From an uncultured Chthonomonadaceae bacterium (GTDB taxonomy: Bacteria; Armatimonadota; Chthonomonadetes; Chthonomonadales; Chthonomonadaceae): a DNA stretch of 64,000 nucleotides. Positions 1 through 52,815 of this stretch are shown here, one piece after another. The notes under the pieces are model-generated. The model made no database searches and had not been told where the DNA came from. It worked only from the letters and a program-made list of their open reading frames with translations. Position 1 is the stretch's first letter; each line of letters opens with the position of its first letter. Made by a program: the position numbers and the translations under genes. Location of the stretch: assembly GCA_963835065.1 (NCBI GenBank), contig CAWIEK010000057.1, forward strand, positions 64,001-128,000. The letters run 5' to 3'.

Positions 1-125
1 TGTGGGTAGCCGGTCAAAGCGGCAGCGTATCGCCAATCCTCGCCGCCTTCGCCGCCGATATTGTTGGCCTGACGGTCGGCCTGGCACTCGCGGTGCGGGC
101 ATCGCAGGTAGGCATTAGGCATTAG
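1..125 (+). CDS. 3' end of a membrane protein, probably LptF/LptG family permease (partial)
   Basis: Frame 3 reads WVAGQSGSVSPILAAFAADIVGLTVGLALAVRASQVGIRH*, resembling the last TM helix of LptF/G. The stop codon lies inside the GGCATTA repeat. Confidence 0.5.
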   Translation, partial: WVAGQSGSVSPILAAFAADIVGLTVGLALAVRASQVGIRH

Positions 126-228
126 GCATTAGAGCAGACATAATCCTATAGTGTGTCGGCAACAATGTACTTCAACAGGCACAGGCTGAGAGGCATTCCT
201 AATGCCTAATGCCTAATGCCTAATGCCT
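109..228. repeat. Inverted tandem heptamer mini-element (GGCATTA)n - ~66 bp spacer - (TAATGCC)n
   Basis: Left arm 109-132 and right arm 198-228 are reverse complements. Confidence 0.9.
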
Positions 229-239
229 GGAGTTCTCCC

Positions 240-1880
240 ATGTTCTGGACACTGCTCGCCCTGCTGTTGATGATTGTGCTGGGCGGGTTTATTTCTTATT
301 ACGGTGATTTGCAGGGCAGGCGCTGGGGCAAGCGGCGCGTGTCCTGGTTTGGCTTGCGTCCCAAATATACCGCCGTTGTCATTACCAGTCTGACAGGCGC
401 GTTTATTGCCCTGATGAGCATCATTACGGTGCTGATTGCCTCCCCGACCGTGCGCGAAGTGGTATTGCGCGGCGAACGGGCGCTTGAGGAGAACAAGCGG
501 GCGCTGGAAGAAAACCGGCAGCTTAACAACAAACTGGCGGTGGAGCGTAAAATCGCCACGCGGGACGTGGATGTATTGAAGGCGTCCACCAAAAGCCTGA
601 ATGAAGCGCTGAAAACGAAAAAACAGGAAGTGGAAACGACAAAGCTGGAGTTGGAACTGGCGCGCAGGGATGTTACCGCCGCGCAGCAGAAACTCGTTCC
701 CATGCAGGCGGAAGTGACTCAACTGCAAGCAAGACAGGCGGAATCAAAAACCACGCTGAAGCAGGAACAAGCCGCTATTAAGCAGAAATCCGCCGAACTG
801 CAAACTAAAATCGTTGAAAACAAGCGGGCTTCCGAAATGAACATCGGCCTGAGCCAGCGATTGCAGGATTTGAACCAGCGAACGAAACAACTGGCTGACA
901 AGAACCGGGAACTGGAACAGGGGAACAAAGAGCTTCAACAGACCAAAGACAGCATGACGCAGACGATTGATAATTTGTCGCAGGAAAAAATGCGAAAAAC
1001 GCATGAGAACGATGCGCTGCTGGAAGTAAATAAGCGCATGATTGCGCAGAACAACGATCTGGAAGCCAAAAACGGTTCCGTCGCGCAGGAATTGGATAAG
1101 AAGCAGCGTGAACTTGCCAAAGCGAACACGCAGTTGGATCAGGCAGCCGCCAATCTTGCGGGCGCGGGGCAAACGTTTACGCAAAACTACCATGCGCTGC
1201 GGCAGGGCGAAATCAACATTCGGGCGGGCGCGGAACTGGCGCGGCGCGTGATTGCGGCCAAACAAAGCAGTGACGCCGTGCGCAAACAATTGGTGCAGTT
1301 ATTGGAAGCGGCGGGCGATACGGCCAGCGTTTACGGGGCGGCGCGGGGCGACAACAACCGGGCGGTTCGCATAATCAGCAAGAAGCTGGTGACGCAGTTC
1401 GAGACGCAGGATGTGGACGAAAGTGCCAGCCTCAACGCGCAGTCGGAAGTGATTGCCAACAGTTCCACGCCGGTTGTCGTGATTGCCACAGCGCTCAACA
1501 ACAGTCTGCGCGGCGAACAGGCGATTGTGGAACTGCGCCCGTTTGCCGTCCGGCATGTATTCGACAAGGAGGAAGTGGTCGCGTCACGCCTGATAGACGC
1601 GGTCCAATCTCCGCAGCGCATCAAGGAAGCGATTGCCGAGTTTTTGCAGCAGAACGTGAAAAATGCGGCGGTACGCGCAGGCAGTATTCCCCATGTCAAC
1701 CCGGAAACGGGCCGCAAGGAGATCGGCGTGTATGACAGCATTGCCCTGGGACAGTTAGCCGATCAGGTAAAGCGCATGGGCGGCAGCGTCCTGCTCAAAG
1801 CCGTCGCCACCACCGCCATTACGTCCGCCGACCCGCTGGACGACGAACATCTGCACTTCGAGACGGTACACACTCCGTAG
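240..1880 (+). CDS. DUF3084 domain coiled-coil membrane protein
   Basis: N-terminal GGFISYYGDLQGRRWGKRRVSWFGLRPKYTAVVIT, two TM helices and a long coiled coil. ATG 240 chosen because the ORF-track start at 216 lies in the repeat. Confidence 0.85.
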   Translation: MFWTLLALLLMIVLGGFISYYGDLQGRRWGKRRVSWFGLRPKYTAVVITSLTGAFIALMSIITVLIASPTVREVVLRGERALEENKRALEENRQLNNKLAVERKIATRDVDVLKASTKSLNEALKTKKQEVETTKLELELARRDVTAAQQKLVPMQAEVTQLQARQAESKTTLKQEQAAIKQKSAELQTKIVENKRASEMNIGLSQRLQDLNQRTKQLADKNRELEQGNKELQQTKDSMTQTIDNLSQEKMRKTHENDALLEVNKRMIAQNNDLEAKNGSVAQELDKKQRELAKANTQLDQAAANLAGAGQTFTQNYHALRQGEINIRAGAELARRVIAAKQSSDAVRKQLVQLLEAAGDTASVYGAARGDNNRAVRIISKKLVTQFETQDVDESASLNAQSEVIANSSTPVVVIATALNNSLRGEQAIVELRPFAVRHVFDKEEVVASRLIDAVQSPQRIKEAIAEFLQQNVKNAAVRAGSIPHVNPETGRKEIGVYDSIALGQLADQVKRMGGSVLLKAVATTAITSADPLDDEHLHFETVHTP

Positions 1881-1893
1881 GGGTAAGGGATAA

Positions 1894-2454
1894 GTGGCAA
1901 GGGAGAAGGGCGGAAAACAGGGAACAGAAAAAAACAGTGATGAATGCGGAATGATGAATGATGAATCAGAATCCCATTCATCACTCATCACTCATCACTC
2001 ATCACTTTCCCCAACACCCTTGCCTCGTGTTCTGGCGATTGACCCCGGCACGGCAAAGTGCGGCGTGGCCGTCGTTTGTTCCGACGGCCACGTTCTGCAC
2101 CGGGGCATTGTGTCGGCAGAAACTCTTGTTGAGGAGACGCGAGCGCTGATTGCCGCGCGCCGGCCTTGCCTTATCATTTGCGGCAATGGCACGGGCGCAA
2201 AGCCGATTCTGCAAGCCCTGCAAGCCGCGCAATTCTCCATTTCCGTTCAGGCGGTTGAAGAAGCGCATACTTCGGAAGCCGCCCGAATTCGTTTTGTTCG
2301 TGAAAACCGCCCGCCATTCCTGCAGCGTTTGCTTCCCCGCAGCCTCCGAACACCCTGGCTCCCCTATGATGATTACGTAGCCGTGATTCTCGCGGAACGT
2401 TACTGGCAGGACGCTGCAACGCGCGGCAATTTTCACCATGAACCTGTCAAGTAG
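1894..2454 (+). CDS. YqgF/RuvX-like RNase H-fold nuclease with repeat-derived N-terminus
   Basis: VLAIDPGTAKCGVAV, IICGNGT, VEEAHTSEAAR and DDYVAVILAERY motifs. Start uncertain because residues 1-43 are encoded by heptamer repeats. Confidence 0.8.
   Translation: MAREKGGKQGTEKNSDECGMMNDESESHSSLITHHSSLSPTPLPRVLAIDPGTAKCGVAVVCSDGHVLHRGIVSAETLVEETRALIAARRPCLIICGNGTGAKPILQALQAAQFSISVQAVEEAHTSEAARIRFVRENRPPFLQRLLPRSLRTPWLPYDDYVAVILAERYWQDAATRGNFHHEPVK
1936..2006 (+). repeat. Palindromic TGATGAA/TCATCAC element, copy 1
   Basis: GCGGAATGATGAATGATGAA...CATTCATCACTCATCACTCATCAC, homologous to 8582-8652 and 36101-36174. Confidence 0.85.
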
Positions 2455-2516
2455 ATGGTCAAGTAGATGGATGGTTCAATAGCGCAACCAAAGCGTTTGC
2501 AGGTACAATAAAAATT

Positions 2517-2864
2517 ATGCGTCTGCTCAACCTGCTGAAAAGCAAAATACACCGCGCGGTTGTCACCGAAGCGGACTTGAACTACATCGGCAGTATCACC
2601 ATTGACCTCGATTTGATTGAACGCTCCGGCCTGGTTCTCAACGAACTGGTACACGTCTGGAACCTTGACAACGGCGAACGCTTTGAAACGTATGTGCTGA
2701 AAGGCGAACGCGGGGCGGGGCAGATTGTCGTCAACGGAGCCGCCGCCCATCGCGTCCGCGTCGGGCACAAACTTATTATCGCGGCCTTCTGCCTGACCGA
2801 CGAACCCCTGACGCCCACAGTGATTCTCGTGGACGACCACAACCGCTATGTGCGCGACTTGTGA
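2517..2864 (+). CDS. panD: Aspartate 1-decarboxylase
   Basis: LKSKIHRAVVTEADLNYIGSITID (G-S cleavage site), NGERFETY, NGAAAH. Confidence 0.97.
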   Translation: MRLLNLLKSKIHRAVVTEADLNYIGSITIDLDLIERSGLVLNELVHVWNLDNGERFETYVLKGERGAGQIVVNGAAAHRVRVGHKLIIAAFCLTDEPLTPTVILVDDHNRYVRDL

Positions 2865-2991
2865 AGGCATTAGGCATTAGGCATTAGGCATTAGGAAGAC
2901 CGCCCCGTTTACTGTTACACCGCAAAGAAGGCTAACGTCACTTCAAGGTGGGTTGATTTTCCTAATGCCTAATGCCTAATGCCTAATGCCT
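2865..2991. repeat. Inverted tandem heptamer mini-element (GGCATTA)4 - ~65 bp spacer - (TAATGCC)4
   Basis: Arms at 2865-2895 and 2961-2991. The spacer is unrelated to that of the 109-228 copy. Confidence 0.9.
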
Positions 2992-3002
2992 CGAGCCTAA
3001 CT

Positions 3003-3746
3003 ATGATTTACGCAATCGGCGACATACACGGCAAATTGACGATGCTGCGGCAGATGCTCACAGAGATTATCGCGCAGCCGCTTCAGGAAGACGACACGGT
3101 GATCTTTCTGGGCGATTACATAGACCGGGGCGAGGACTCGCGGGGCGTGATTGAGGAAATCATCCGCTTCAAAGCGGAGCGTCACGCCAACACGGTTTTC
3201 CTGCGCGGCAACCATGAGCAATTGATGCTGGATGCGCGTGAGGACGATCCGCCCCGTCCCGCCCCCCGCGCCGGGTTTATTTTATTCGAGGAGCGCACCT
3301 TAAACTGGCTGCAAAACGGCGGCGTGGATACCCTGAAGTCGTATGGCATGGAAGACTATTCCCAGTGGGCAGACAGCATCCCGCCCGAACATTGGGAGTT
3401 TCTGAACCAGACGCGCTTCGAACACATGATCCCCGGCTACCATTTCGTTCATGCCGGCCTGCTACCTCCCGGCGTGAATTGGGAAATGCGCAGTTGGGGT
3501 TTGGACCCGCGCCTGTGGATACGCGAAGAGTTTCTGCACAGCGTAGCGGATTTCGACGGGCGTATCGTGGTCTTCGGACACACGCCGCAGCGGGAAGGCA
3601 AGCCCCTCGTGCAGCCCAACAAAATCGGCATTGACACGGGCGCGGTCTTCGGCAAGCCGCTCACCGCCGCCATCCTCGACCCGTCTGCCGCGCCCGTCGC
3701 CGCCAACGCCCGCTTTATCCAGATTGCCAACCCCGATGAGGAGTAA
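3003..3746 (+). CDS. Calcineurin-like metallophosphoesterase (PrpA/ApaH-type Ser/Thr phosphatase)
   Basis: GDIHG, LGDYIDRG, RGNHE, FVHAG, VFGHTP and IDTGA motifs. Confidence 0.93.
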   Translation: MIYAIGDIHGKLTMLRQMLTEIIAQPLQEDDTVIFLGDYIDRGEDSRGVIEEIIRFKAERHANTVFLRGNHEQLMLDAREDDPPRPAPRAGFILFEERTLNWLQNGGVDTLKSYGMEDYSQWADSIPPEHWEFLNQTRFEHMIPGYHFVHAGLLPPGVNWEMRSWGLDPRLWIREEFLHSVADFDGRIVVFGHTPQREGKPLVQPNKIGIDTGAVFGKPLTAAILDPSAAPVAANARFIQIANPDEE

Positions 3747-3796
3747 ACCCTCCCTGCTCCCGTACTCCGCTATTCTCGTAAAGGAGATTTGCTGCT

Positions 3797-4918
3797 GTGG
3801 AAAACGAGAACACGCCCTCAGAAAACGTAACGCTTCCTGCCGAAGAAATCATTGCGCCGGAGTACGACAGCATTGTGAGCGACATTGCGCAGTTGCTCGA
3901 ATCGGCGCGTCGCCAAGCCGCGCGTTCCGTCAACGCCCTGATGACCGCGACGTACTGGCTCATTGGTCAACATATCATAGGACTAGAGCAAAACGGTAAG
4001 GAGCGCGCCAGACGAGGCGACTCATTGCTTGAACGGCTTTCAAAAGATTTGACAGCGAAAGCAGGCAGGGGATTTTCCGTGGATAATCTGGAGTCCATGC
4101 GGCTATTTTACCTTGCTTATCCCGCGCCGCCATATTCCGAGACAGTGTCTCGGAATATGGAATTAACACAAATTGCCGAGCGTTTTCCCTTATCTTGGTC
4201 TCATTACGTGCTTTTAATACGTAGACCGCGCTCTATAGAAGCACGGACCTTCTACGAAATTGAAGCGCAACGGGGTGGATGGTCGCTGAGACAGTTGGAG
4301 CGTCAGATGAATTCAATGTTCTACGAGCGCACTGCTCTTTCGATTAACAAAGCAGCAATGCTTACAAAAGGCATGGAGGTTAAACCGGAAGATGTTATGA
4401 GCGCGGAAGCCGAAATTAAAGACCCGTACGTGCTTGAGTTTCTCAACTTGAAAGATGATTATTCGGAGTTGGAACTTGAAGAGGCGCTTATCAAACATCT
4501 GGAAAGTTTTCTGTTGGAATTAGGCAACGACTTCGCCTACGTAGCAAGGCAAAAACGTATACAGATCGGGCATAGCTGGTTTCGTATGGATTTGCTGCTA
4601 TATCATCGTCGCCTGCGCTGTCTGGTCATTATTGACTTGAAAACAGGCGAGTTCAATCACGCAGACGCAGGGCAGATGAACCTGTACGTCAACTATGCAG
4701 CCGAACATCTGACTTTGCCTGATGAAAACCCGCCTATCGGCCTGATTCTCTGCTCGGAACCCAACGCCGCCGTCGCGCAGTACGCGCTGAACGGCCTGCA
4801 CAACGCGGTTTTAACGGCAGAATACCGTCTCGCCCTCCCCGATGAACAACTGCTCACGGCAGAATTGGAACGCACCCGAAAATTGCTCGAACAACATAAG
4901 AAACCAGATGTCTGCTGA
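3797..4918 (+). CDS. YhcG/DUF1016 family PD-(D/E)XK nuclease
   Basis: YWLIG, RGFSVDNL, LSWSHY, IKDPYVLEFL, FLLELGNDFAYVARQKR, IDLK, DAGQMNLY and PIGLILC. GTG start after AAGGAG. Confidence 0.93.
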   Translation: MENENTPSENVTLPAEEIIAPEYDSIVSDIAQLLESARRQAARSVNALMTATYWLIGQHIIGLEQNGKERARRGDSLLERLSKDLTAKAGRGFSVDNLESMRLFYLAYPAPPYSETVSRNMELTQIAERFPLSWSHYVLLIRRPRSIEARTFYEIEAQRGGWSLRQLERQMNSMFYERTALSINKAAMLTKGMEVKPEDVMSAEAEIKDPYVLEFLNLKDDYSELELEEALIKHLESFLLELGNDFAYVARQKRIQIGHSWFRMDLLLYHRRLRCLVIIDLKTGEFNHADAGQMNLYVNYAAEHLTLPDENPPIGLILCSEPNAAVAQYALNGLHNAVLTAEYRLALPDEQLLTAELERTRKLLEQHKKPDVC

Positions 4919-5018
4919 AAATAGTTTTCCTTCGCTAATGGTACACCTTTGCTGTAAATCCAATTCCGCAGACAGTGTCTGCGGAATTGGAACTGTAAGC
5001 GCTTCGTATGGGGGTAAG

Positions 5019-5745
5019 TCAGGATACAAATAATTGCCACCAACTGCGTTTTTTCACGCCCGCTGCTGTTAATGCTTCGGAAGCCCTGACACGTACCTTC
5101 TTATGTTGATCTTTAAGCAATCGAGTAAAATGGGGAATAGCGCGTCTATCTCCGATTTCGCTTAATGCTTCCACTGATGAGGCACGTATTTGAGGATCAG
5201 GATCATCAAGCGCCTCGATAAGTGGTACTACGGCGCGCACATCTTGGAGGTCGGCGAGTATCCGTATTACTATCATGAGACGCCGTTGGTGAGTATCGGT
5301 GTGAAGAATCTGGATCAGCGGTTCGATTTCGGCTTTCCCAATAGAAATAAGCGCCTCCCAGGCCATAGTTGGGTTGATTCTATCCTCATCCTCAATCATT
5401 AAATCCAGAAGAGGTTCAATGGCCCGCGTATCTTTCAGCTGACCAAGCGCATGAGCCGCAAGACCACGCTGGTTTGGAGATTCATCTTTCAAAGCCAAAA
5501 TGAGCGGTTCGACGGCAGTTGCATCGCCAATCTGTCCAAGAAGATAAGCACTAAGAAAGCGTAGATGACGATTGTCACTCCGAAGCCCGACGGTGAGAGG
5601 CACAATGGCGGGTTTGCCTATAGATTCAAGCGCATCTAGTGCTGCGTTTATATATATCTCTATCTTCTTCCTTCAGTGCTTCTATATGCTTTGCTATCTC
5701 ACTTTGAAGATGCGCTGGCGCGCTTTGAAACTCATCGTTCTCCAT
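5019..5745 (-). CDS. HEAT/PBS-lyase repeat protein, frameshifted in an (AT)n tract near 5650
   Basis: Repeated LGQIGDATAVEPLILALKD units. An upstream frame MENDEFQS...EDRDIY joins NAALDALESIGKPAIVPL across TATATATA. Confidence 0.75.
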
Positions 5746-5888
5746 TTGTGATTTCTACTTAACTTGCTCCATGTGTTATACTTACGATAACCCTGTCGAA
5801 GCATCTCATGTGAGAGTGACATCAATACGCTTCTGAGTTGAAATGTTGCGATTCTAAGGCGTAAATTCCCCACGGGGCTTGTTCTTTA

Positions 5889-7809
5889 TCAGGCGGGAAC
5901 CGTATCCGCCCACTGTCGGCTCCGGTCTTCAATCTCTTTAATCGCGTCTTCTTTTACTTTCATTTCTTCGCTATGCTTCGCGGTTTCCGCCAGTGCTAAC
6001 AACTGCTTGATCGTGTCCCGCCGCGCCGGGTTGCTGCGAATCAAGTCCGAAAGTTTCAGTTGCTTCAAGCGCATACTCAGGCTTTCCAAACGCGCGTCCA
6101 GTTCGGGTGTTGGGTGTTGGGTGTTAGGTGTTGGGGGGGCAGGCAAGGATGAAGGATGAGGGATGAAGGATGAAGCCGCTCCTCCTGTTCCCTGTTCCCT
6201 GTTCCCTGTTCCCTGTGTTTCCTCTTCCTCCTCCGCCTGCCCCGTGTAGCTCCACAACACGCGGACGCGCTGCGCGGATTCGTCAATATCGCGGGCGGAG
6301 CGGCGGGCGTCGTAGCGGAGGGGCAGGATTTTATCCGTGCCTTCGATTCGGGCTTCCAGCGCCATCACCGCGTTTTCATCGTACACGAACAGCACGGACA
6401 GCGAACGCCGCGCGCCCGTTGTGGAAACGGGAATATCGTGGATGGTTTCTTCGCGCAGGCGGGTGGCGCGGGCATCGGTCATCAGGCTGTCGGACGTGGC
6501 GTAGCCCTCATATAAAGTGATAGTTAAGGTTTGCTGCGTGGGGGATTTCAGGGTCAGGTCGGAGCGCAGCTTGCGGAACGGCAGTTCGGCTCCCGGTGGG
6601 ATGAGCAGGCCGTAGCGCTCCTGATGCGTGTGCGGGTCCTCGTAGCTCAGGCCCAGGCCGTGACTGGCAACGTCCTTGAGTTCCAATCGCCGCCCGCTTT
6701 CTTCGCTTCCGAGCAGTCCCAACTGGTCGGCGGCCAGAATGGACGCGCCTTCCGCAACCGCCGTAAGCGGATCGAAGGACAGGCAGCGCGCGCCAAACCG
6801 GGCTTCCATCATTTCGCGCACGGCGGGGATTTTGCAGGTTCCGCCGACAAGCAGCACATGCCCGATGCTTTCGGGCGGCAGATTGCTTTTGGCGACGGCT
6901 TCGTCCAGGCAGGCGCGCGTGGCATCTAAGCAAGGGTTTGGAAATCTGCTCGAACACTTCCCGCGTAATGGTGGCGCGCAGGGAATAATCGCGCCCGTCT
7001 TTTTTGCCGACGTTACGCAGAAAGACGCGCGTGGTCGGGTCGGTAGACAATCGCCACTTGATTTGTTCGGCCTCGTTACGCAGAATGCCGTCCAGGTCGG
7101 GGGCGGGCGTAACGCCGGGTTCGATCTGCTGCCGCAGCCATTCGCGGACGCCATAATCGAAGTCAATGCCGCCCAATTTCGGGTTGCCATGCGTGGAATG
7201 GACGCGCAGCGCCTTTTTGGATTTGGCAAGGATGGTAATGTCCAGCGTACCGCCGCCGAAGTCGAACACGAGCAGGTTTTCCTCGGTTTCAGGGCGTTCG
7301 ATGGTGTAGGAAAGCGCGGCAGCCGTCGGCTCATTGACCAATCGGAGCGGGTTCAGGCCGACGATTTTCGCCGCCGCCAGCAATGCTTCCCGCGCCGCGC
7401 CGCCGAAATTGGCCGGAATGGACAAAACCACATCCTTAATCGGTTCGCCGATTTTAGCCTGCGCGTTGGTGACGATATGCTTCAAAATCAGCGCGGCCAC
7501 TTCTTCGGGCTTGTACGCCTGCCCGAACAGCATAAACGTCTTGTTCGGATCGCCCAATGACCGCTTCACTTCGCGGATCGTATCGGGCGACTCCAGCAAA
7601 TCCCACGCCCGCCAGCCAATCGTGATTTCCGGCGTACTGCCCGGCGCGTCATCCTTCCACGCGGCCACGACGGAGGGCGTCCACGGAGCCTGGTACTGAT
7701 CGCGGGTGTTCGGGTCTGACAGCACACTCGCCATGCCGTACTGGTAGCGCGCCACAAGCGACGTGCTGGTTCCAAAATCTATGCCGATGGCAAACGTCTG
7801 CTGCGCCAT
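5889..7809 (-). CDS. Atypical Hsp70/DnaK-family protein, frameshift near 6930
   Basis: IGIDFGTS, NEPTAAAL, VFDFGGGTLD and LGGIDFD in one frame. LLVGGTCKIP and AVAEGA in the other. Repeat-derived insert at about 6105-6215. Confidence 0.85.
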
Positions 7810-7852
7810 GCTTGCTTTTCTCTCCTCAAAATCCAAAGTTTATAGTACCTCC

Positions 7853-7984
7853 TCACCACCAAGACGCCAAGAACACCAAGAGAAAAATGCAATCGAAGAC
7901 AGTTTCGTCCTCTCATGCAACTTCACAATGCAATTCTTCTCATTCTTCTCGTTTTGCTTGGTGTTCTTAGTGTCTTGGTGGTGA
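7853..7984. repeat. MITE-like element with 28-bp inverted arms made of 9-mers (CACCAAGAA-like)
   Basis: TCACCACCAAGACGCCAAGAACACCAAG (7853-7880) matches the reverse complement of 7957-7984 with 2 mismatches. Confidence 0.85.
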
Positions 7985-7995
7985 AGAGTTAAATT

Positions 7996-9024
7996 TTATT
8001 CTACATGCGGTTTGCGGGCGATTTGTTCCAGTTCCATGGTCACATCGCCAAGCGCGGCTTCCAGGTCGGCGAGCAGGGGCGAGGAAGCGCGGGCAGCGGC
8101 TACGTCTTCCAGATCAATGACTGCGCGCAGTAAACATTCTTCGGTTTGATTGCCGATGACCTGCACGTTGCCCCAGGGGTCTATGACTTGCGAGTTTCCG
8201 CTGAACCCTTTGCCGCCCTCGAAACCGACCAGGCCGGAATACACGACCCACACATTATGCTCGTCGGCAATTCCGGGCAGCAGCACGTTCCAGCGCGCCA
8301 CGTTGCCCACATGCTGCCCGCCAAAATCGCGCCCCGGACTGGCGCTGATGATGTAAATCACCTGCGCCCCCTTTAATGCCGCCAGCATTGCCGTAACCGA
8401 GTGCCACACGTCCTCGCAAATCAGCACGGCAACGGTTCCAAACCGCGACGCAAACGCCCGCACCGTCCGCCCCCGCGACACAAACCGCTTCTCATCAAAC
8501 ACGCCATACGTCGGCAGGAAGAACTTGCGGTGAACGTGAGAAATCGCGGGTGTTGGGTGTTGGGTGTTGGGTATTGAGGATAATGATGAGTGCTGAGTGC
8601 TGAGTGATGAATGGGATTCTGATTTATCATTCATCATTCCGCGTTCAGCATTGTTCCCTTCTTCCTGACCCCTGGCCCCTGATCCCTGACCCCTTGTGAG
8701 CGTGGCATACAGTGCGCTGTTGAAATACTTGCCTTCGCCTAATTCGTAAAAGCCCAGGCAGATGTCGAGGATGGCGTCGGGGCGGGTGACGCGCTCGCGG
8801 TAAACGCGCAGCAAGTCGGCAAATAATTCTTCGCGCGTTTTGGCGATTTCGCGGACGCCGCCTTCCAGAAAATACCCGGACAGAACGGTTTCGGGCAGGA
8901 CAAGCACATCCGGGGCGGGGGCGTCGGCTTCCAACTGCGCGAACAGGTCGCCGATCCGGTTGAGATTGTACGCATAATCGCCCTTTTTCGGCTTAATTTG
9001 CGCTACGGCCACATTCACTTTCAC
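7996..9024 (-). CDS. Carbon-nitrogen hydrolase (nitrilase superfamily, NAD-synthetase glutaminase-like) with in-frame repeat insertion
   Basis: E-K-C triad (LPE, HRKFFLPTYGVFDE, LICED). GTG start after GAGGAGG. Confidence 0.9.
   Translation of the reverse strand: MKVNVAVAQIKPKKGDYAYNLNRIGDLFAQLEADAPAPDVLVLPETVLSGYFLEGGVREIAKTREELFADLLRVYRERVTRPDAILDICLGFYELGEGKYFNSALYATLTRGQGSGARGQEEGNNAERGMMNDKSESHSSLSTQHSSLSSIPNTQHPTPAISHVHRKFFLPTYGVFDEKRFVSRGRTVRAFASRFGTVAVLICEDVWHSVTAMLAALKGAQVIYIISASPGRDFGGQHVGNVARWNVLLPGIADEHNVWVVYSGLVGFEGGKGFSGNSQVIDPWGNVQVIGNQTEECLLRAVIDLEDVAAARASSPLLADLEAALGDVTMELEQIARKPHVE
8548..8695 (-). repeat. Composite heptamer element (GGGTCAG / TGATGAA-TCAGCAC palindrome / CCCAACA) in frame within the nitrilase
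   Basis: Encodes about 49 aa RGQGSGARGQEEGNNAERGMMNDKSESHSSLSTQHSSLSSIPNTQHPTP. Confidence 0.85.
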
Positions 9025-23536: not shown

Positions 23537-23612
23537 GAAAATGCCTGTATTCGGTGTTCGGTGTTCGGACACTCCGGCATGTTCATGCTCCGGGGTGAAC
23601 ATAGTTCATGCA
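23537..23612 (-). repeat. Dispersed ~75 bp CGAACAC element, copy 2
   Basis: Its reverse complement aligns with 13965-14037. Confidence 0.8.
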
Positions 23613-23804
23613 GCCTCTCCTGTAAAAAGAAAGGGCTGTGACACACTTCACACTCCTGCTGTGACAGGTTCCAACGCTCAAATAACCAGGTTCGCGCATA
23701 ATAGAGTTGTCTCTTATGCGCGAACCTTGTTGTTCTTTTTGATGTTCGCTATTTGAAGTTTACCGTTTGACGCCATGCCGATTTGATTGAGGGAGTTTCA
23801 CGCG

Positions 23805-25376: not shown

Positions 25377-25526
25377 AAGATATAAGATATAAGATATAAG
25401 ATATAAGCAGGACAGGCTTTTAGATTGCTCTGTGAAGCGGTTGCTTGTCGTCAAAAACATGCCACACAGTCCCCTGCAAGCTGCCATCCCAAACTTATAT
25501 CTTATATCTTATATCTTATATCTTAT
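25377..25526. repeat. Inverted tandem heptamer mini-element (AGATATA)4 - 86 bp spacer - (TATATCT)4
   Basis: Arms at 25377-25407 and 25494-25526. The right arm supplies the TAA of the aminopeptidase gene. Confidence 0.9.
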
Positions 25527-30044: not shown

Positions 30045-30259
30045 AAAGGAAACCTCCTCCCTAAATTGCTCTGCACAGCCAGATTATACCACAGCCCCAC
30101 TCTCACGCCATGCGTTTGCGGCGTATCTAGGCGCCTATCGCGTCAGGCCGGGCGTTTCCTCCTGAATCCACCCGGCAGGAAAGCGCAAGCATCCTGCGAA
30201 CGCCCTCCCAAGCTTGTCAGGAGAGGATCGAGGCAAAAGCAAAGGATGAAGGATGAGGG

Positions 30260-30451
30260 TATGTAGAGACAGCGTCGAAATCTTGGCAATGCAGCGCTTC
30301 CAGCCCAGTGTCTCGTTGTGTCAAATTGTAAGTAGAGGCGTCGTGACCTCAGAGGCGTCAGGGCGAACGGGAAGAGTTTACAGGCATCTTCTTGCACCTC
30401 CCTTCTGTGTTAGGGTTTTAGGTTGTTAGGTTGAGAGTTGAGAGTTGATAG
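30260..30451 (-). ncRNA. Candidate structured RNA with short ORF MPVNSSRSP* (30387-30358), copy 1
   Basis: Homologous to 47020-47194. SD GAAGGGAGGTG and a covarying stem. Confidence 0.6.
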
Positions 30452-36049: not shown

Positions 36050-36546
36050 GTCAATTGCAACCATTCTGGCCGGGATTTTGGAGCGGAAGAGGGGGAAGGA
36101 AGTGATGAATGATGAGTGATGAGTGCTGAATGAACTGCATTTTGTTCATCATTCATCATTCCGCGTTCAGCATTTCCTTCTGTTCCCTTGCTCACCGACA
36201 GTCCGGCATCGTGGAGGCACAAGTTGCGATGTTCTTCAACAAAGGCAAGCTGTTCGGATGTAAGAGAAGCAGACGCAGCAAGGCGGGCAAGAAGAGTGGC
36301 GGCGGAACGGAAGTCACGGAGTTGGCAGGCTTGCTGCGCTTGTTGGTACAGGGGATGGGCTTGCACAACAACAAGGGCGTTTTGTTGCGATGTGGGAGGA
36401 ACAAGCGCGGCGGGATGTAGGCGCGGCACGGCGGCAGACGCCCGCTTGGACGCCAACGCGGCGGAAGGAGGCGCGTGGGAGCAGCCCGTCAGCAGGCACA
36501 GGCCGCAACAAAGCAAAGGAGAACGAACACTACGCCATACGAACAT
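36050..36546 (-). pseudogene. Truncated lipoprotein (LTGC lipobox, TPR-like helices) ending at palindromic element copy 3 (36101-36174)
   Basis: Open in frame with the LuxR gene, but the intervening sequence is AT-rich and intergenic-like. Confidence 0.45.
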
Positions 36547-43910: not shown

Positions 43911-43994
43911 TGCGGCAACTATTTCTTCAAAGCGACCCAAGCAAAATATAACCTGTCGCTAGATTGGCAATACTACATGAACAAACACTCGGCA

Positions 43995-44947: not shown

Positions 44948-44950
44948 ATA

Positions 44951-45919: not shown

Positions 45920-46099
45920 CTTAACTATAGTGATTGAGAAGAGCCTATTTGACAGTGGCATTGCAAGCCCTTCCCCATCGGCGGGGCTTGCAGCATTTAC
46001 ACCGGGCACACTCAACGCAGGAGGCAAGACAGCCATGCACACCTTCATTACGGTTCCCGAAGCCGCCGACCTATGGGCTACAGGCCGCGCACAAGTCTT

Positions 46100-46894
46100 T
46101 CAGTCTTCCCCACCCTCTTCCATGTCGTGAAGCAAACTTCCCTGCTGCCAGACGCCCTTTAGAGGCCGCTCTACGCCTGTTTTAGCAGGACAAACGTTCT
46201 TGTACGGGCAAGTCGTGCAACCGATTCCCGGCGTAGGCTTCCATGCTTTTTCCTGTTGAATACTCGCACAGGTTGCGTCCACCCACTCTACCGTAGCCTT
46301 CAACGTAGCGCGATTCGCGGGAAAAACCTTTTCCTCTCCATGTCGCAGGTAGTATAGCCTCACGTCCGCCACAGGAAGCCCCAAACCGTGTTCCGCCAAG
46401 ATTTGGTAAAAGCCCAATTGTCGCGGATTGAAACCTGTTTCGCCCTCCGGTAGCAATTTGTCCAATTTGTAATCAATAACGCTGTATCGGTTATCGTCGC
46501 GCAGGTCAATGCGATCCACAACACCGCTGAGGTTGTAGGGGCCAAAAGACAGTCTAATCACTTGTTCATGGTGTGTGGGCAAACGTCTGAGACGGTTCTC
46601 GCGTTCCGCAAAGGCGCGTAGAATAGTCTCGCTTTCACGATACGGTTGAGAATTACGTACATCCGGCGAACGCGGTAAATCGTAGACGTGCGCCAGGGCG
46701 TCGAGTAAACCCTGCTCCTCGACCACGCCGTCTTTGCGCCCTCGGACGTAGTAACTGCGAATCGCGGCGTGAATACGCTTTTGGAACGTCAGAGACGTGA
46801 TCGGAGGCCGGGGCAGGCGCTCGATGTAGCCATACCGATATTTGAGCCGGCAGTCGCTGAAGGTTTTAAGTTTTGTATAGGACAAGTTCATCAA
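46100..46894 (-). CDS. RecB/Cas4-like PD-(D/E)XK nuclease with 4-Cys cluster
   Basis: LSYTKLKTFSDCRLKY, GVVDRID, VIDYK, QLGFY and CTTCPYKNVC. Confidence 0.88.
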   Translation of the reverse strand: MMNLSYTKLKTFSDCRLKYRYGYIERLPRPPITSLTFQKRIHAAIRSYYVRGRKDGVVEEQGLLDALAHVYDLPRSPDVRNSQPYRESETILRAFAERENRLRRLPTHHEQVIRLSFGPYNLSGVVDRIDLRDDNRYSVIDYKLDKLLPEGETGFNPRQLGFYQILAEHGLGLPVADVRLYYLRHGEEKVFPANRATLKATVEWVDATCASIQQEKAWKPTPGIGCTTCPYKNVCPAKTGVERPLKGVWQQGSLLHDMEEGGED

Positions 46895-47019
46895 AAATTA
46901 AAAAAACTTTGCACCATGCGAAAAAAAGAACACTTTCCACCTTCTAAAATGCCTGCGAAGTGTGAATATATCTGCAAATCAGCCAGGCGGCGGGACGGGG
47001 GAGAGTTAGAGCGGAGTTC

Positions 47020-47194
47020 CTATCAACGAACAACCTGACAACCTAACCCGGAAGGGAGGTGCAACAAACATGCCTGTACATACGCGGGCGCCGTAACTCT
47101 AATGAGGTCACGACGCCTCTGCTAAAAACTAGACACAATGAGGCGGAGTGCTGGAAGCGCTGCATTGCCAAAATTTCGACGATGCCTCTACATA
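47020..47194 (+). ncRNA. Candidate structured RNA with short ORF MPVHTRAP* (47070-47096), copy 2
   Basis: Homologous to 30260-30451 on the opposite strand. Confidence 0.6.
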
Positions 47195-47284
47195 TTCTTT
47201 TATTTTCCATTTAGATGCGGTCGCCCTGAACGCAGGTTTTCCTGATGCGGAAGGACCTGCGCTCTATGCATTAAAAGGTAAAGA

Positions 47285-48703
47285 CTACGCTTTGGGCGCA
47301 ACGCCTTTATAAGTCGGGTCCGCGAGGCCGGGGAGTTCGCCGTCGCTGTCTCCGAAATTGCTGACGGGAACGCCCATGCGAGTCGCCATGCCCCGGTATA
47401 GGTCGCACAGGGGCGTGTTTTTGCCGTATACCAGATGCCGCCCGGTTGCCAGCGTGCCGCCGCCCCGTCCGGCAAGCACCATCGGCAGGTTGTGCGGGTC
47501 GTGGGCGTTGCCGTCCTTCATGCCGCAGCCCAAAAGCACCATGCTGTTGGCAAGCAGGTTGCTGTCGCCTTCCCGTATCCCCTTCATCTTTTCCAGCATA
47601 TAAGCGTACTGCTGCAAGTGCCAGATGTTGATGCGCTTGTATTCTTCCAGCTTGGCTTTGTCGTTGGAGTGGTGCGAAATCTCGTGGTGGCTGCCCGACA
47701 CTCCCGGCAGAAACGAGAAGTTCTTGCCGCTCACTTCGTTGCCGAACATGAACGTCGCCACTCGGGTCGAGTCCGTCCAAAAGGCCAGCACCATCAGGTC
47801 CAGCATCAGGCGCACCTGTTCCGTATGGTCTATGCGCTCGTGCAGTTTGGCGGAGTCTTTGTAGTAGTCCTGTATGCGCAGGCCGAGTTTTTCCACTTCC
47901 GCTTTAGCAAGGGCGTCGTCGGAATAGTGCGCCTTGCGCCGGGCGGCATCGAACGCGATCCGCTTTTCCACCGAGCGCACCGACTCGAAATACTCCTCTA
48001 ATTTCAGCTTGTCCGCCTGCCCGATTTTGCTGTTCAGGCTTTTGGCGTCGTCCATCACGGCGTCTAAGACGCTCATGTCGTTTTGGTTGGCCGGTTTCGC
48101 GCTCATCGTGGAGCGGAACAGGCGGTCAAACGCAAGCTGCGGGTTGATTTCGCGCGTCACGGGCGTGGTCGGCGTACTCCACGAGATATGCGAGCCGTAC
48201 AAAGCGGTCAGGCCGACGTTGGTATCCACATACGTTGTCGGCGGCTCCACGCTCAGTTCCAGCGAGGGCAGGGGCGTCAGGTTGCCGATGTGCTGCGCGA
48301 CCAGTTGATCCAGGGAGACGCCGCCGCAGCGCAGATTGCTGCCGGTTGTCTTCGTGATGTGCGTACCCGTCAGCCAGGGCGCGACCTTGAAATAGTGCCC
48401 GTCGCCGTCGTTGCTCTGCTTGTTCATCAATTCGGTGAACACCAGCACGTCGGACTTGACGCTTTCCAATGGCGACAAAATGGACGAGAGTTGAAAATCC
48501 GCGCCCGCTCCCTGCGGCATCCACTCATGCGGATTGACGCCATTCGGCATGTACAGCGCGGCCATGCGAACGGGCGGCTTGACGATTTTGCCGGCTGCAA
48601 ACGCCGTTCCCGCCTGCATAGACTCCAGAAACGGCAGGCACAGCGTCACGCCCAATCCCTTCAGCACAGTGCGGCGCGTCATCGGTTCAGAAAATCGGCT
48701 CAT
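47285..48703 (-). CDS. DUF1552 family Tat-exported protein
   Basis: TRRTVLKG, YMPNG, SLDQLVA, LPSLEL, DSTRVATF, HHEISHH and DGNAH. Confidence 0.93.
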   Translation of the reverse strand: MSRFSEPMTRRTVLKGLGVTLCLPFLESMQAGTAFAAGKIVKPPVRMAALYMPNGVNPHEWMPQGAGADFQLSSILSPLESVKSDVLVFTELMNKQSNDGDGHYFKVAPWLTGTHITKTTGSNLRCGGVSLDQLVAQHIGNLTPLPSLELSVEPPTTYVDTNVGLTALYGSHISWSTPTTPVTREINPQLAFDRLFRSTMSAKPANQNDMSVLDAVMDDAKSLNSKIGQADKLKLEEYFESVRSVEKRIAFDAARRKAHYSDDALAKAEVEKLGLRIQDYYKDSAKLHERIDHTEQVRLMLDLMVLAFWTDSTRVATFMFGNEVSGKNFSFLPGVSGSHHEISHHSNDKAKLEEYKRINIWHLQQYAYMLEKMKGIREGDSNLLANSMVLLGCGMKDGNAHDPHNLPMVLAGRGGGTLATGRHLVYGKNTPLCDLYRGMATRMGVPVSNFGDSDGELPGLADPTYKGVAPKA

Positions 48704-50721
48704 TATCTCTCCTGGTTCGTCACAACGTCTTTTTTCGATTCGGCAGTCTCGTCCTTGCGGTACAGGAACGGGTAGCTTTTCACAATGCCGCGAATCAGTA
48801 TGGAACTGCGGTAATCGTTCTTCGCCAGTTCACTCGTGATTTTGCGGACGGCGGGCAGGTCGTAGGGTTCCAGGCCCCGGCCCAGCGCGTACGCCAGCAT
48901 CTTTTCGGTCAGGTTGCGGGCAAACTCATCCTTTTGCGCCATAAGAATTTGCTTGAGTTCAACGGCTCCCGTAAACTTTTCGCCCGTTGTCAGAACGCCG
49001 GACGCATCTACGGGTTTGCCGCCGATGTCCGCGCGCCATTTGCCCGTCGCGTCGAAGTTTTCCAGCCCGAAGCCGATGGGGTCCATGCGGGCGTGGCAGC
49101 CGGCGCATTCCGGCTTGGTACGGTGCTGCTCCAAACGCTGCCGGAACGTGATCCCGCCTTTGGGCGCATCGTCGGGCGGCAGGGTGGCGACAACGGGCGG
49201 CGGGGGCGGAACCGACGCGCCCAGCACTTCCGACAGCACCCACTTGCCGCGCAAAACCGGGCTTGTGCGCAGGGGGTACGAGGTCAGGGTTAAGATACTC
49301 GCCTGCGTCAAAATGCCGCCGCGCCGATGATCGGCAAGCGATATGCGGCGCATCCCCATACCGGTCACGCCGTCAATGCCGTAGTGCTTGGCAAGCGGTT
49401 CGTTGACATAGGTGTAATCGGCGTCCAGCAGGCGCAGCAGGCTGGCATCATCCTGCACGACGGACTGAAAGAAATCAATGGTTTCGCCGTACATAGCGTC
49501 GCGCAGTTCGGGCGTGTAATCAGGAAAGCGTTTCGGGTCGGGCTTGGCGGACGTGTACAAATCGCGCGCCCGCAGCCATTGCCCCGCAAACCCGTCCGCA
49601 AACGCATGGGCTTTTGGACTTTTCAGCATCCGCGCGACCTGCTGATCCAGCACGACAGGCAGATGCAGCTTCTTTTGCGCGGCAAGCGCGAACAACTCCT
49701 CATCCGGCATGGACGACCACAAAAAGTACGACAGGCGATTAGCGATCTCATAATCGTTGAGCGGGTAGGCGTCCTGCGCGGGCTTGCTTTGCTCGGCGCG
49801 AAACAGGAAATTGGGCGACACCAGAACGGCTTTCAGCGCGAACTTCACGGACGGCTGAAAACCCTCGCCCCGTTTTGCCGCCGCATCGTACAAGTGAAGC
49901 AAGCGCTCCACTTCCATTGCATCAGCGGGGCGGCGATAGCCCAGCGTGGCGTAGCGGGACAGGATTTTACGCGCGGCTTCGCGGGCGGGAACGGTTTTGC
50001 CGGGACGGACAAAGAACAAGCGCTCCGGTTTCGCCGCGTCCACAATCTCGCCCGCCGCCTGCAAATAGCGCTCCATTAAAATCGGCGGCACGAACAGCGT
50101 ATCGGCGTTGTTGTCGAAACCGCCGCCCCCGCCGCCATCGGCAGGAAAATTATCGGCGGGATTGGAGGAAACGCCGAACAAATCACGAACCGTATTGTTG
50201 TATTCCACGCGGCTCAGGCGGTGCAGCAACACGCGCCCCGGATTTTTTGGCAGCAAACTGTCATCCGTACTGGCAAGCGTATGCCCAATCCAGATGGAAA
50301 GTAAATCGCGTTGCTCCATTGAGGGCTGCGGCAGGCGGGCAGGCGGCATTGAGCGTCCGCGCACCTGCGCCAGAACCTTGCGCCACGTCGTCTGGTCGCG
50401 CTGAATCGCCGCAACATCGGCATAGCCCGCGAGATTGACGCCCGCCGCCGGATTTGTCGCGCCGTGACAGCCAATACAATACTGCTGTAACAGCGGCTTG
50501 ATCTGCTTGTCATACGCGGCCGTATCGGCAGGGGGTGTTTGCGCGATTTTGGGTTCGTCCGCGCCCCGCGCCAACGTCGCGCCCAACAGCAGGGCGGGCA
50601 AAGTAAGCGATAACGCGAAACGCAGCAGTGTGGGACGGTGTAGGTGACGCTGTATATTAAGGATAGCAGGATGGTTCAAATTCAAAAATTTCTCTCGCAA
50701 AGGACGCTGAAATACGCGCAA
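48703..50721 (-). CDS. DUF1592/DUF1588 (PSD-type) cytochrome c protein
   Basis: CIGCH, RLSRVEYNNTVRDL, GFDNNA, RLSYFLWSSMPD, RTSPVLRGKW and CAGCHARMDPIGFGLENFD. Start uncertain. Confidence 0.92.
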   Translation of the reverse strand: MRVFQRPLREKFLNLNHPAILNIQRHLHRPTLLRFALSLTLPALLLGATLARGADEPKIAQTPPADTAAYDKQIKPLLQQYCIGCHGATNPAAGVNLAGYADVAAIQRDQTTWRKVLAQVRGRSMPPARLPQPSMEQRDLLSIWIGHTLASTDDSLLPKNPGRVLLHRLSRVEYNNTVRDLFGVSSNPADNFPADGGGGGGFDNNADTLFVPPILMERYLQAAGEIVDAAKPERLFFVRPGKTVPAREAARKILSRYATLGYRRPADAMEVERLLHLYDAAAKRGEGFQPSVKFALKAVLVSPNFLFRAEQSKPAQDAYPLNDYEIANRLSYFLWSSMPDEELFALAAQKKLHLPVVLDQQVARMLKSPKAHAFADGFAGQWLRARDLYTSAKPDPKRFPDYTPELRDAMYGETIDFFQSVVQDDASLLRLLDADYTYVNEPLAKHYGIDGVTGMGMRRISLADHRRGGILTQASILTLTSYPLRTSPVLRGKWVLSEVLGASVPPPPPVVATLPPDDAPKGGITFRQRLEQHRTKPECAGCHARMDPIGFGLENFDATGKWRADIGGKPVDASGVLTTGEKFTGAVELKQILMAQKDEFARNLTEKMLAYALGRGLEPYDLPAVRKITSELAKNDYRSSILIRGIVKSYPFLYRKDETAESKKDVVTNQER

Positions 50722-50909
50722 ACTCTTCTTTTATAATACAACATTCGGGCGAAGGCTGCACGATTTGTTGGAGCGCCGTACGCGGCATTGGTTACAAGTT
50801 TGTGCAGGAGAGGCGTTTTTGAACATAGCCGCGAATGAACGCGAATACAGCGAATAGAGAATAAAAGAATGACAATTCTTGATGTTCAGGAGGCGGACAA
50901 GGAGAATCT

Positions 50910-52082
50910 ATGCGACAGAGCAGGCATTATTACATCATGGCGGCGGCAGCGATAATGGCCTTTTTAACAGGCTGTTCCGGCTTGCTGCGCCCTTCGGGCA
51001 CAGGTAACAGCGGCACAGATACCGGCGGCGATCAGTACGCGGCAACGCCAGCGCTTGCTGTCCATTCGGCGACTCCGCGCACTGCCGCGCCGCGCCGAAC
51101 GATTGGCGCGGGCGCGGAAAAATTGATGCCCCGGCAGCCGATACCAAAGCGCGTCCTTGCCCTGTATTATCCCTGGTATCAAACGCCGGACCGCAGCATG
51201 AAGTGGGCGCACCAGGAGGGCGTTGACGTTCGCCATAAGCGTATTCTCAGCCACGCGCATTATCCCACCTCAGGCCCGTATGACAGCAGCGATCCCGCCC
51301 TCATTGACCGGCATCTCGCGCAGGCGCAGGCGGCGGGAATTGATACGCTGGTATGCAGTTGGTGGGGCGCGGGCGATCCGACAGACGAGGCCATACGGGT
51401 TTTACTCAAGCGCGCTTCCAAATACCACATCAAAATTTGCGTTTTGTGGGAACAATATGCGGGCGCGGGCGGGGCGGACGAACTGCGGCGCAATTTAACC
51501 TATCTGCTGCAAGGCATGGCCCGTTCGTCGGCTTATCTTAAAGCAGACAATCGGCCCGTGATTTTCGTGTACGAGCGTGTGCGGCAAAGCGCCAATTACG
51601 ATACGTGGATAGAGGTTCTGAATGAGATTACGACCCGGTATCCACCGGGCGTCTTCATCGTGGGCGATGGACGGACGGCAGACGAGCGCCTGATGTGGGA
51701 CGGCCAGTACAGCCTTCACGCGCCCGGTCGCATGGTGGGACAAACGCCCGAAGCCAACGCCAAAACGCAGCATCGGGAACGGCTTGCCGACCTGACGGAA
51801 TCGCGCCGCCAAAACCATCTTGGCGTTGCCAGCCTGATGCCCGGCTACGACGACCGACGGTACAACGCGCTGCACCGTCAGCCGGGCAGCATCCTCGTCA
51901 ACCGCGAAGACGGCCAATTGTACGCCGCGCTGTGGAAACAGGCCATAGCCGACAAGCCGGACTGGATTTTAATCAACTCGTTCAATCAGTGGCATGCCGG
52001 CAACGAAATCGAACCCTCAGTAGAAATGGGCGACCGGTATTTGAAAATGACGCGCGCGTTCGCCGACAAATTTAAGCAATAG
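50910..52082 (+). CDS. GH99-like lipoprotein, probably catalytically inactive
   Basis: LTGC lipobox, YYPWY, GPYDSSD, CSWWG, PGYDDR and SFNQWHAGNEIEP. Confidence 0.8.
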   Translation: MRQSRHYYIMAAAAIMAFLTGCSGLLRPSGTGNSGTDTGGDQYAATPALAVHSATPRTAAPRRTIGAGAEKLMPRQPIPKRVLALYYPWYQTPDRSMKWAHQEGVDVRHKRILSHAHYPTSGPYDSSDPALIDRHLAQAQAAGIDTLVCSWWGAGDPTDEAIRVLLKRASKYHIKICVLWEQYAGAGGADELRRNLTYLLQGMARSSAYLKADNRPVIFVYERVRQSANYDTWIEVLNEITTRYPPGVFIVGDGRTADERLMWDGQYSLHAPGRMVGQTPEANAKTQHRERLADLTESRRQNHLGVASLMPGYDDRRYNALHRQPGSILVNREDGQLYAALWKQAIADKPDWILINSFNQWHAGNEIEPSVEMGDRYLKMTRAFADKFKQ

Positions 52083-52090
52083 GCCACGAA

Positions 52091-52693
52091 CTACTTTTTC
52101 GGGATCGCGGTTTTCAGGGTCGGCGTGACATCCTTGCCGTCCACGCGCAGGGTTGCGCCCGGCATATCCTCGTTTTTTTGGACCAGCCATTTGCCGCCGG
52201 TTTTCACCCACGTATGGCGCGAAGGCACAGACGCTTCGATGTGATGCGACTGGCCTTTGGAACCGGGTTTGTCTCCCGGCCCGACCGCCGTGAAATCCAG
52301 TTTTTCCATATCTTCCGTGACGGCTTTGTCGCCCATCACCTTACAATTCATAATGCTGGCGGATACAGTGTTCATCGAAGCAATCACGCTGAAATTTTGC
52401 TTCAAGAGCGCTGTGTACTCGGCGCGGTTATGTATTTTGCCGGAAATCTCCTGCGTCGTGTAATCCGGCGTAAAGTTGCGCAGCACCCCCTCGGCATCTT
52501 TCTTCTTGAGCGCCGCGCTGATCGTGTCTATTTGCGCTTGAAGCTGCTTTCTTACGTCGGCTTCACTGGCGTGGGCAACGGAGGAAGCGGCAAGCAGCGT
52601 TCCCACAGGAACCACAACCCCCATCAAGGCGGCAAACGCGCGATTGTATCGAACCCGGCGCATAAATCTATCTCCTTCAGCAGCAGTGACCAT
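52091..52693 (-). CDS. Secreted NTF2-like (DUF4440) protein
   Basis: Signal peptide AHA-SE, ALKKKDAE...FTPDY and HTWVKTGGKWL. Confidence 0.75.
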   Translation of the reverse strand: MVTAAEGDRFMRRVRYNRAFAALMGVVVPVGTLLAASSVAHASEADVRKQLQAQIDTISAALKKKDAEGVLRNFTPDYTTQEISGKIHNRAEYTALLKQNFSVIASMNTVSASIMNCKVMGDKAVTEDMEKLDFTAVGPGDKPGSKGQSHHIEASVPSRHTWVKTGGKWLVQKNEDMPGATLRVDGKDVTPTLKTAIPKK

Positions 52694-52730
52694 TTTAGAT
52701 TTTATTGTACCCCGTTGCCTGCGTAAGAAC

Positions 52731-52815
52731 AGGCATCAGGCATTAGATACGAGACAGAAAGCAGAAGAGACTTGTACTTGGTTCCTAATGCCTGATGCCT
52801 GGATGCCTGATGCCT
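52731..52815. repeat. Degenerate inverted heptamer mini-element (AGGCATY)n - ~37 bp - (RATGCCT)n
   Basis: Arms at 52731-52746 and 52784-52815. Confidence 0.75.

Follow-up and report, generated by a model that had tools for sequence, protein, structure and literature searches.

Small gene-less hairpins that turn over behind bacterial stop codons have tandem-repeat arms matching those of four-helix-bundle and GxxExxY cassettes

A 64,000-nt stretch of DNA from an uncultured Chthonomonadaceae bacterium (hereafter the window) contains units of a common design, in which tandem copies of a short word, usually 7 nt long, form two inverted arms around a spacer. Two questions are raised by these units: (i) whether they are mobile or are long-standing residents of their gaps; and (ii) if they move, what moves them. 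The reading we favour, and consider probable, is that they are small gene-less hairpins that turn over behind stop codons, and that their arms are shared with cassettes encoding four-helix-bundle or GxxExxY proteins, which likely mobilise them by an arm-guided copying of the recombination type. By analogy they are best read as non-autonomous elements of the cassettes, a real family that would work like REPINs (doublets of repetitive extragenic palindromic sequences, REPs, that form hairpins) and yet are not REPINs.

The window is part of an assembly of 8.0 Mb that is 92% complete (G000). It was compared with two congeners, G002 (2.0 of ~7.5 Mb sampled) and G001 (0.4 of ~6.6 Mb sampled), and with contigs from the sequencing runs X1, X3 and X4, of which X1 and X3 come from two studies. 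Genes were called with our own simple dicodon predictor, and start positions are therefore approximate. The first-pass annotation of the window had listed five units, all of which were found where it placed them; it had overlooked those at 1895-2021, 6103-6216, 8548-8694 and 36101-36161. The units, which are flanked by protein genes and carry no open reading frame (ORF), are as follows.

109..228: hairpin element with (AGGCATT)n arms at 109-132 and 198-228 and a ~66-nt spacer; (AGGGAGT)n arms at this site in G002, a degenerate hairpin in G001
1895..2021: nested compound element with a GGGAACA-like outer part and TGATGAA/TCATCAC inner arms; a different nested element in G002
2865..2991: hairpin element with (AGGCATT)n arms at 2865-2895 and 2961-2991, located between a metallophosphoesterase gene and panD
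6103..6216: compound heptamer arrays within an Hsp70-family gene (- strand), whose reading frame continues through them; other arrays at this place in G002 and G001
7846..7991: 9-mer-arm element of the CACCAAGA type, arms at 7853-7984; skipped in X1 and X3 contigs
8548..8694: nested heptamer element within a carbon-nitrogen hydrolase gene (- strand), whose reading frame continues through it; missing from the G001 orthologue
25377..25526: hairpin element with (AAGATAT)n arms at 25377-25407 and 25494-25526 and an 86-nt spacer; AGATACG-type arms and another spacer in G002
36101..36161: TGATGAA/TTCATCA hairpin element
52731..52815: hairpin element with degenerate AGGCATY arms at 52731-52746 and 52784-52815; 8-mer arms of the AGGGTTTT type in G002

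Overlap with stop codons, claimed for three units, was verified: the left arm of the 109 unit supplies the TAG (123-125, + strand) of the upstream gene, an arm of the 25377 unit supplies the TAA (25523-25525, - strand) of an M1 peptidase gene, and an arm of the 52731 unit supplies the TAG (52814-52816, - strand) of ORF 52814-53098. The TGA of panD stops one base ahead of the 2865 arm. The expectation of long stems with slippable register also agrees with the folding of the five originally noted units, whose stems are more stable than those of shuffled sequences (z -4.3 to -10.7; 0 of 200 shuffles equal). A search of the window against Rfam gave no match.

The window units are representatives of a genome-wide population. 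Perfect arrays, defined as three or more copies, number 1330 in G000 at period 7; any other period between 4 and 15 has 0-163. The proposed check spoke against chance pairing: 187 inverted pairs lie within 150 nt, against 16.0 ± 4.1 (maximum 28) in 200 label shuffles. When mismatches and 8-mers are allowed, 583 inverted short pairs occur at 580 loci among 3442 arrays in total, many of which are unpaired. The G-rich arm leads in 580 of the 583 pairs, whose median length is 114 nt, with a median arm of 31 nt and spacers most often of 50-60 nt; the 9-mer family of the 7846..7991 unit has 54 left arms, 51 of them paired. About 20 repeat units are in use in G000, most of them unable to form G-quadruplexes, and the main paired ones (AGGCATT, AGTAGTC and AGTTGAT) have no GGG. 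The paired AGGCATY pattern was present in one of the 31 genomes searched.

The elements are closely tied to gene ends. Out of 574 placed loci, 450 lie in co-directional gaps, 62 in convergent gaps, 33 in divergent gaps and 29 inside called genes; the arm starts a median of 1 nt past the stop, and the next start codon follows a median of 18 nt past the far arm. The adjacent stop is TAG in 225 of 405 cases, compared with 1780 of 6932 genome-wide, an excess that is partly circular because the arms often supply the TAG. The left unit is stop-bearing in 370 of 580 elements, and stop-free units are found in 22 of the 29 in-gene elements. Neither 7 nor 8 is divisible by 3, so that a stop-bearing unit repeated three times blocks every reading frame, and we read the distribution of stop-bearing and stop-free units as a selective filter. 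Comparison with G001 and G002 proteins gave 80 insertions of at least 36 nt, among which 22 rows had arrays: 20 in frame and stop-free (~16 loci) and two frame-breaking. RNA-level splicing of the in-gene copies was considered and is not indicated, 20 of the 22 array insertions being in frame and stop-free.

With regard to mobility, whole units move, sites are re-used, and no target duplication is present in the few clean sites. An X1 contig, ~94% identical to the window, has 14 letters in place of 1895-2021. X1 and X3 contigs (~94% identical) are without 7838-7990, and X1 is also without 23542-23632; at the joints of the empty alleles in the X contigs, 5-14 letters are replaced. An X4 contig covers window positions 1-205 with seven differing letters and one gap. 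In the cleanest empty sites of the G002 and G001 comparisons, the insertion lies directly after a TAG. Target duplications, which the first-pass annotation had proposed to look for, were not seen in 14 site pairs viewed, about four of which were cleanly alignable. Among 412 spacers there are 20 pairs with at least 80% identity, of which 13 have both flanks in common (duplications), one has one flank in common and six have none, including a pair that is 98% identical, 4 kb apart and in opposite orientation. The earlier suggestion of non-autonomous mobile units is thus upheld by presence/absence polymorphism and by near-identical copies in unrelated flanks.

The same sites are occupied by different elements in related genomes. 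At the panD locus, which had been named for an orthologous comparison, G001 is empty and G002 has AGGTTTC/AGGTGTC arms, and G002 has a hairpin with a different unit at four of the four heptamer sites originally noted. Among 416 orthologous gaps of G000 and G002, 46 hold an element in both genomes, a further 43 are filled just in G000 and 24 just in G002, and the remaining 303 are empty in both (odds ratio 13.5); only three of the 46 doubly filled gaps have the same unit in the two genomes. For G001, two of 68 gaps are filled in both genomes, too few for a test. Co-located spacers score 17.4, compared with 16.3 for random pairs (p=0.06; 35 pairs, both orientations); a gap-free simulation at 60-65% identity predicts a score of 37-46 for them. 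The fourfold-degenerate sites of G000 and G002 are 63.5% identical, and the centres of element-free gaps score 30.4 versus 17.5. Spacer orientation is opposite in three of three clear co-located family pairs and divides 27 to 21 relative to transcription. Opposite orientation favours independent arrival, although inversion of the stretch that the arms enclose could have the same outcome. We consider this to be good evidence for turnover; same-site swapping and arm replacement are new here.

A further property is that arms are exchangeable around inherited spacers. The 71 AGTAGTC elements have a single spacer lineage with 56% mean pairwise identity; the fidelity of the arms to the unit is 94.5%. 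A profile made from the spacer only found 13 new strong matches, all 13 with periodic arms on both sides, and none in the reversed genome. The units around these matches include AAGACAG, ACGGTAG, ACAGTAG, AGGCATT, AGGGAGT and AGTAGTG, with 8-mers in two of three strong G002 matches. At least six different arm units thus surround members of the one lineage, and the two sides have usually changed jointly. Arms accompany 68 of 69 spacer-profile matches, with both arms of one unit class in 65 or 66 of the 68. A left-arm variant is mirrored within its own element in 175 of 446 cases (39%), compared with 24 ± 1.6% for the right arms of other elements. Clade structure by arm unit was not detected within the spacer family (0.543 vs 0.531, p=0.37), in a comparison of 8 with 58 copies that has low power.

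Uniqueness of the spacers, which the first-pass annotation had asserted, holds for those of the 109 and 2865 units, neither of which has a significant paralogue, and fails for the 7853 spacer, whose family has at least 46 copies that are on average 61% identical in pairwise comparison; the paralogue test did not extend to the spacers at 25377 and 52731. In all, a paralogue exists for 212 of 356 spacers and no significant one for the other 144; single-linkage clustering joins 142 spacers, with 22 units among them, into one cluster, in which chaining is possible. Matches to DNA away from an array were given by only 18 of 425 spacers, and those viewed (three per spacer) were short or many times repeated.

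The second question, of what moves the hairpins, is addressed by the cassette genes. A link to four-helix-bundle and GxxExxY genes had been put forward, and matching arms do surround these genes. In G000, all three PF05635 four-helix-bundle genes and all three GxxExxY genes lie between inverted periodic arms, with only a weak arm match for the GxxExxY gene L004, because its two arms differ. Since relatives share units, which makes cross-locus comparison uninformative, shuffles and control genes served as controls. Among relatives, 14 of 15 PF05635 genes and 17 of 19 GxxExxY genes have inverted flanks above all 30 shuffles. For L002, the intact four-helix cassette of G000, 77 of 80 homologues had usable flanks (Acidobacteria, Cyanobacteria, Bacteroidota, Verrucomicrobiota and others), and 45 of the 77 have matched 7-mer arms, versus 0 of 333 and 3 of 596 control genes; 31 of these homologues' arms are within two changes of AGTAGTC, and two more are identical to it.

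The correspondence extends to individual families of gene-less hairpins. L002 itself has AGTAGTC arms, the unit of 72 such hairpins, and a decayed four-helix gene at C24:144565-145034, called by tblastn (E 0.007) and motifs recognised by eye, has AGGCATT arms, the unit of 102 hairpins and of three window elements. In G002, the arms of the GxxExxY cassette L203 match the 9-mer family of the 7853 unit, and those of the four-helix cassette L151 are the GGTAGAT-type 8-mer of that genome's own gene-less hairpins. The cassettes, too, are polymorphic: neither G001 nor G002 has an insert at the L002 site, and the L151 site is occupied in G000 by a 9-mer gene-less hairpin. The notion of an "empty cassette" is accordingly apt for the arms; it does not extend to the interior, as the spacers are not traceable to cassette interiors.

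Two further loci differ between G000 and G002. L004 and L203 are orthologous GxxExxY cassettes that have the right arm in common, the left arm having been replaced in place around a conserved gene. The G000 counterpart of L137, a four-helix cassette of G002, is a stretch of ~900 nt (C24:82671-83578) that has two small ORFs and ends with an AGGCATT right arm. By eye, these ORFs resemble an antitoxin and a MazF/PemK-type gene.

The cassette proteins are likely candidates for the mobilising enzyme. Pfam classes GxxExxY as a PD-(D/E)XK nuclease. The four-helix protein belongs to the S23p family (PF05635) and matches PDB 2GSC (E 9e-19); that of L002 also has a weak likeness to Avd (bAvd PF22296, E 6e-5; diversity-generating retroelement (DGR) Avd model, E 5.6e-8; both below cut-off). 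Neither protein is a known transposase, and the arms are common to both gene types and to the gene-less hairpins. We envisage that movement would start with a cut or nick by GxxExxY, or with binding of the hairpin by the four-helix protein. The donor hairpin would then be copied, by recombination or template switching, into a site with which it has a few bases in common, as a rule the arm of an older element or a TAG stop context. Slippage, with the arms as slippable homology, could even out each arm, and fold-back copying could carry changes over to the partner arm. Selection would keep the inserts that spare the reading frame, i.e., stop-bearing ones at gene ends and stop-free ones in frame within genes. 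A bolder extension, which we offer as a tentative and rather doubtful possibility, is a transposase-free system in which each cassette sets the repeat word of its genome and, on arrival, rewrites both arms of resident hairpins, hundreds of them, family-wide; such a system would be the source of bacterial heptamers and of the mobility of intervening sequences in rRNA.

Several observations weigh against mobilisation by the cassette proteins or against movement itself. At no single site could gain be told from precise loss, and excised or circular forms were not encountered. Co-located elements tend to agree in arm class (9 of 14 versus 0 of 32, p=1.8e-6), which fits in-place rewriting as well as re-targeting by matching bases. 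Of the published heptamer repeats, those of Xanthomonas were 83% kept in place and had no mobile-element link (PMC4692102). No spacer origin in cassette coding sequence could be demonstrated, and this candidate was rejected: a profile search of the spacers against 101 cassette loci gave a best E of 4.7, which is not significant, and the best fit of the spacer-family consensus to the four-helix protein profile had p=0.14. PF05635 has no match in G015 (94% complete) or G001 (97% complete), despite 49 and 8 matches, respectively, to the GGGAACA pattern, and several large families (AGTTGAT, AGGTTTC and AATGATG) have no matching cassette in the 92%-complete G000. Finally, the match between cassette genes and arms is explicable by co-inheritance alone, without the protein acting on the gene-less hairpins.

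Among the alternatives, the elements might be old residents of operon junctions with an RNA-level role in stabilising or processing polycistronic mRNA, their arms being rewritten in place through slippage, gene conversion and copying by fold-back and their apparent mobility being mostly precise loss. This would account for the conservation of sites (odds ratio 13.5), the arm-class correlation and mirrored variants, the replaced left arm and common right arm of the L004/L203 cassette, and the under-use of divergent gaps (33 of 545 versus 957 of 6861). It does not readily explain near-identical copies in unrelated flanks, co-located spacers that are unrelated in both orientations, spacers that are reversed in three of three clear pairs and divide 27 to 21 relative to transcription, or a paired AGGCATY pattern confined to one of 31 genomes, and we regard it as unlikely. 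Nor do we give much credence to a route through RNA in which a host reverse transcriptase makes the copies, chaperoned by the Avd-like four-helix protein; such copying would produce error-rich loops with fresh arms. The below-cut-off matches of L002 to the bAvd and DGR Avd models point in this direction, as do the two reverse transcriptase genes in G000 and loops far more diverged than arms. Mutagenesis by DGRs is biased to adenines, whereas adenines are the best-conserved class in the spacers, so that DGR-like adenine mutagenesis was rejected; departures from the consensus are transitions, C>T and G>A foremost. Spacer orientation is moreover independent of transcription, and no four-helix or GxxExxY match was located within 1.5 kb of either reverse transcriptase match.

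The remaining two alternatives appear very improbable. If the elements were ordinary REPINs moved by a RAYT (REP-associated tyrosine transposase) or another Y1 HUH transposase, the least plausible of the scenarios considered, their size class, inverted doublet and variable spacer would be as in REPINs (PMC3116915), the GTAG at many termini, often giving TAG stops, would resemble GTAG REPs (PMC3733652), and four Y1 genes are available in G000. Inspection by eye found 7-mer arms flanking none of the four Y1 loci, however, and three of these (L224, L225 and L227) have palindromic REP-like ends of their own, whereas the arms described here are tandem words and not self-palindromic REPs. Models of the RAYT and DGR types are rejected because neither linkage to the Y1 loci, judged by eye, nor DGR-like adenine mutagenesis was seen. 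The version given in the first-pass annotation, in which empty cassettes took up short captured foreign DNA as new cargo, could draw on the 144 of 356 spacers without significant paralogue, including those of the 109 and 2865 units, and on a spacer GC content of 42-49% compared with 57% for the genome. Because the spacers instead form large homologous families, in a graded series from 98% identity to background, this idea is not supported; no donor was found in the G000 genome.

Known repeats resemble these hairpins in some respects and differ in others. Inverted heptamer pairs are themselves already published: Xanthomonas has inverted GGGAATC pairs and Nostoc GGGGA(C/T)T repeats (Rehm et al. 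2015, PMC4692102). Like the elements described here, these have heptamer arms of about four units, place the G-rich arm first in convergent pairs, lie near stops and are rare between divergent genes. They use one unit per genome, however, rather than ~20 units that mostly lack G-quadruplex potential, and it is in the present genus that sites are emptied and swapped; four-helix genes go unmentioned in the text of PMC4692102. REPINs (Bertels and Rainey 2011, PMC3116915) are similarly non-autonomous inverted doublets of ~70-140 nt with conserved arms and a length-constrained variable spacer; they show lineage-specific bursts, have a cognate gene flanked by matching repeats, and move with the doublet as replicative unit. 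The present elements differ in having tandem 7-9-mer arms rather than palindromic REPs, four-helix-bundle/GxxExxY rather than RAYT cognates, and arms that change around one spacer lineage.

The full cassettes, but not the gene-less forms, resemble the 23S rRNA intervening sequences with S23p/four-helix-bundle ORFs, in which a PF05635 ORF lies in the loop of a terminal stem; these spread horizontally by a mobility left unexplained there (PMC4990558). Here the sites are mRNA gaps, the arms are tandemly periodic, and gene-less copies are more than a hundredfold more numerous. The TAACTGA repeats of Beggiatoaceae and the short tandemly repeated repetitive sequences (STRRs) of cyanobacteria are likewise abundant intergenic tandem heptamers of unexplained origin, but the TAACTGA sets are nearly all direct repeats, with one inverted among 170 (PMC4679880), whereas those described here form inverted pairs. 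Miniature inverted-repeat transposable elements of the DDE type would differ in target-site duplication, which is absent from the few cleanly alignable empty sites, and a DGR in its adenine-specific mutagenesis and in a reverse transcriptase beside the Avd-like gene, neither of which was seen. Cyanobacterial STRRs were reportedly described by Elhai and colleagues in 2008, together with small dispersed repeats (SDRs) said to be 21-27-nt inserts within heptamer arrays. A literature search covering titles, abstracts and passages, with subscription journals mostly outside it, found no paper linking PF05635 or GxxExxY to heptamer arms.

Many bacterial genomes are known to contain puzzling heptamer repeats, for which there is no accepted origin (PMC4692102, PMC4679880), and PF05635 and GxxExxY are widespread families whose function is not established. 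This genus offers a direct handle: it has ~580 copies, full, decayed and gene-less forms that match one another, near-identical populations in which sites are empty, and a sister species with other occupants at one and the same site. It thereby provides a testable source for the 7-base repeats of bacteria and for the movement of intervening sequences. In addition, host genes take stop codons from the elements, and host proteins gain low-complexity stretches in frame.

Some additional observations concern individual loci. About 16 G000 genes, e.g., C53:531394, C5:35060 and C22:81757, contain nested heptamer inserts that keep the frame and lengthen conserved proteins by low-complexity peptides of 12-49 residues, and gene-less nested hairpins of 250-300 nt with several layers of 8-9-mer arms occur at G000 C2:43334-43634 and C44:512357-512631. 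In the window, the Hsp70-family gene (5889-7810, - strand) is split by a frameshift; X3 and X4 contigs are without one base at 6931, and the extra base of the window is either an assembly error or a recent break. Upstream of panD there is a 12-nt tandem duplication (2446-2470), and G002 panD has a 9-mer-arm hairpin upstream. Two long inverted repeats in the window are non-periodic and unrelated to the heptamer family, one at 54605-54674 (29 bp perfect, 12-nt loop) and the other at 23681-23734 (25 bp, 88%). A longer non-coding repeat family is represented at window positions 30242-30451 and 46930-47290 and at G000 C53:434679-435732 and C41:182677-183297, and heptamer arrays border some of its copies.

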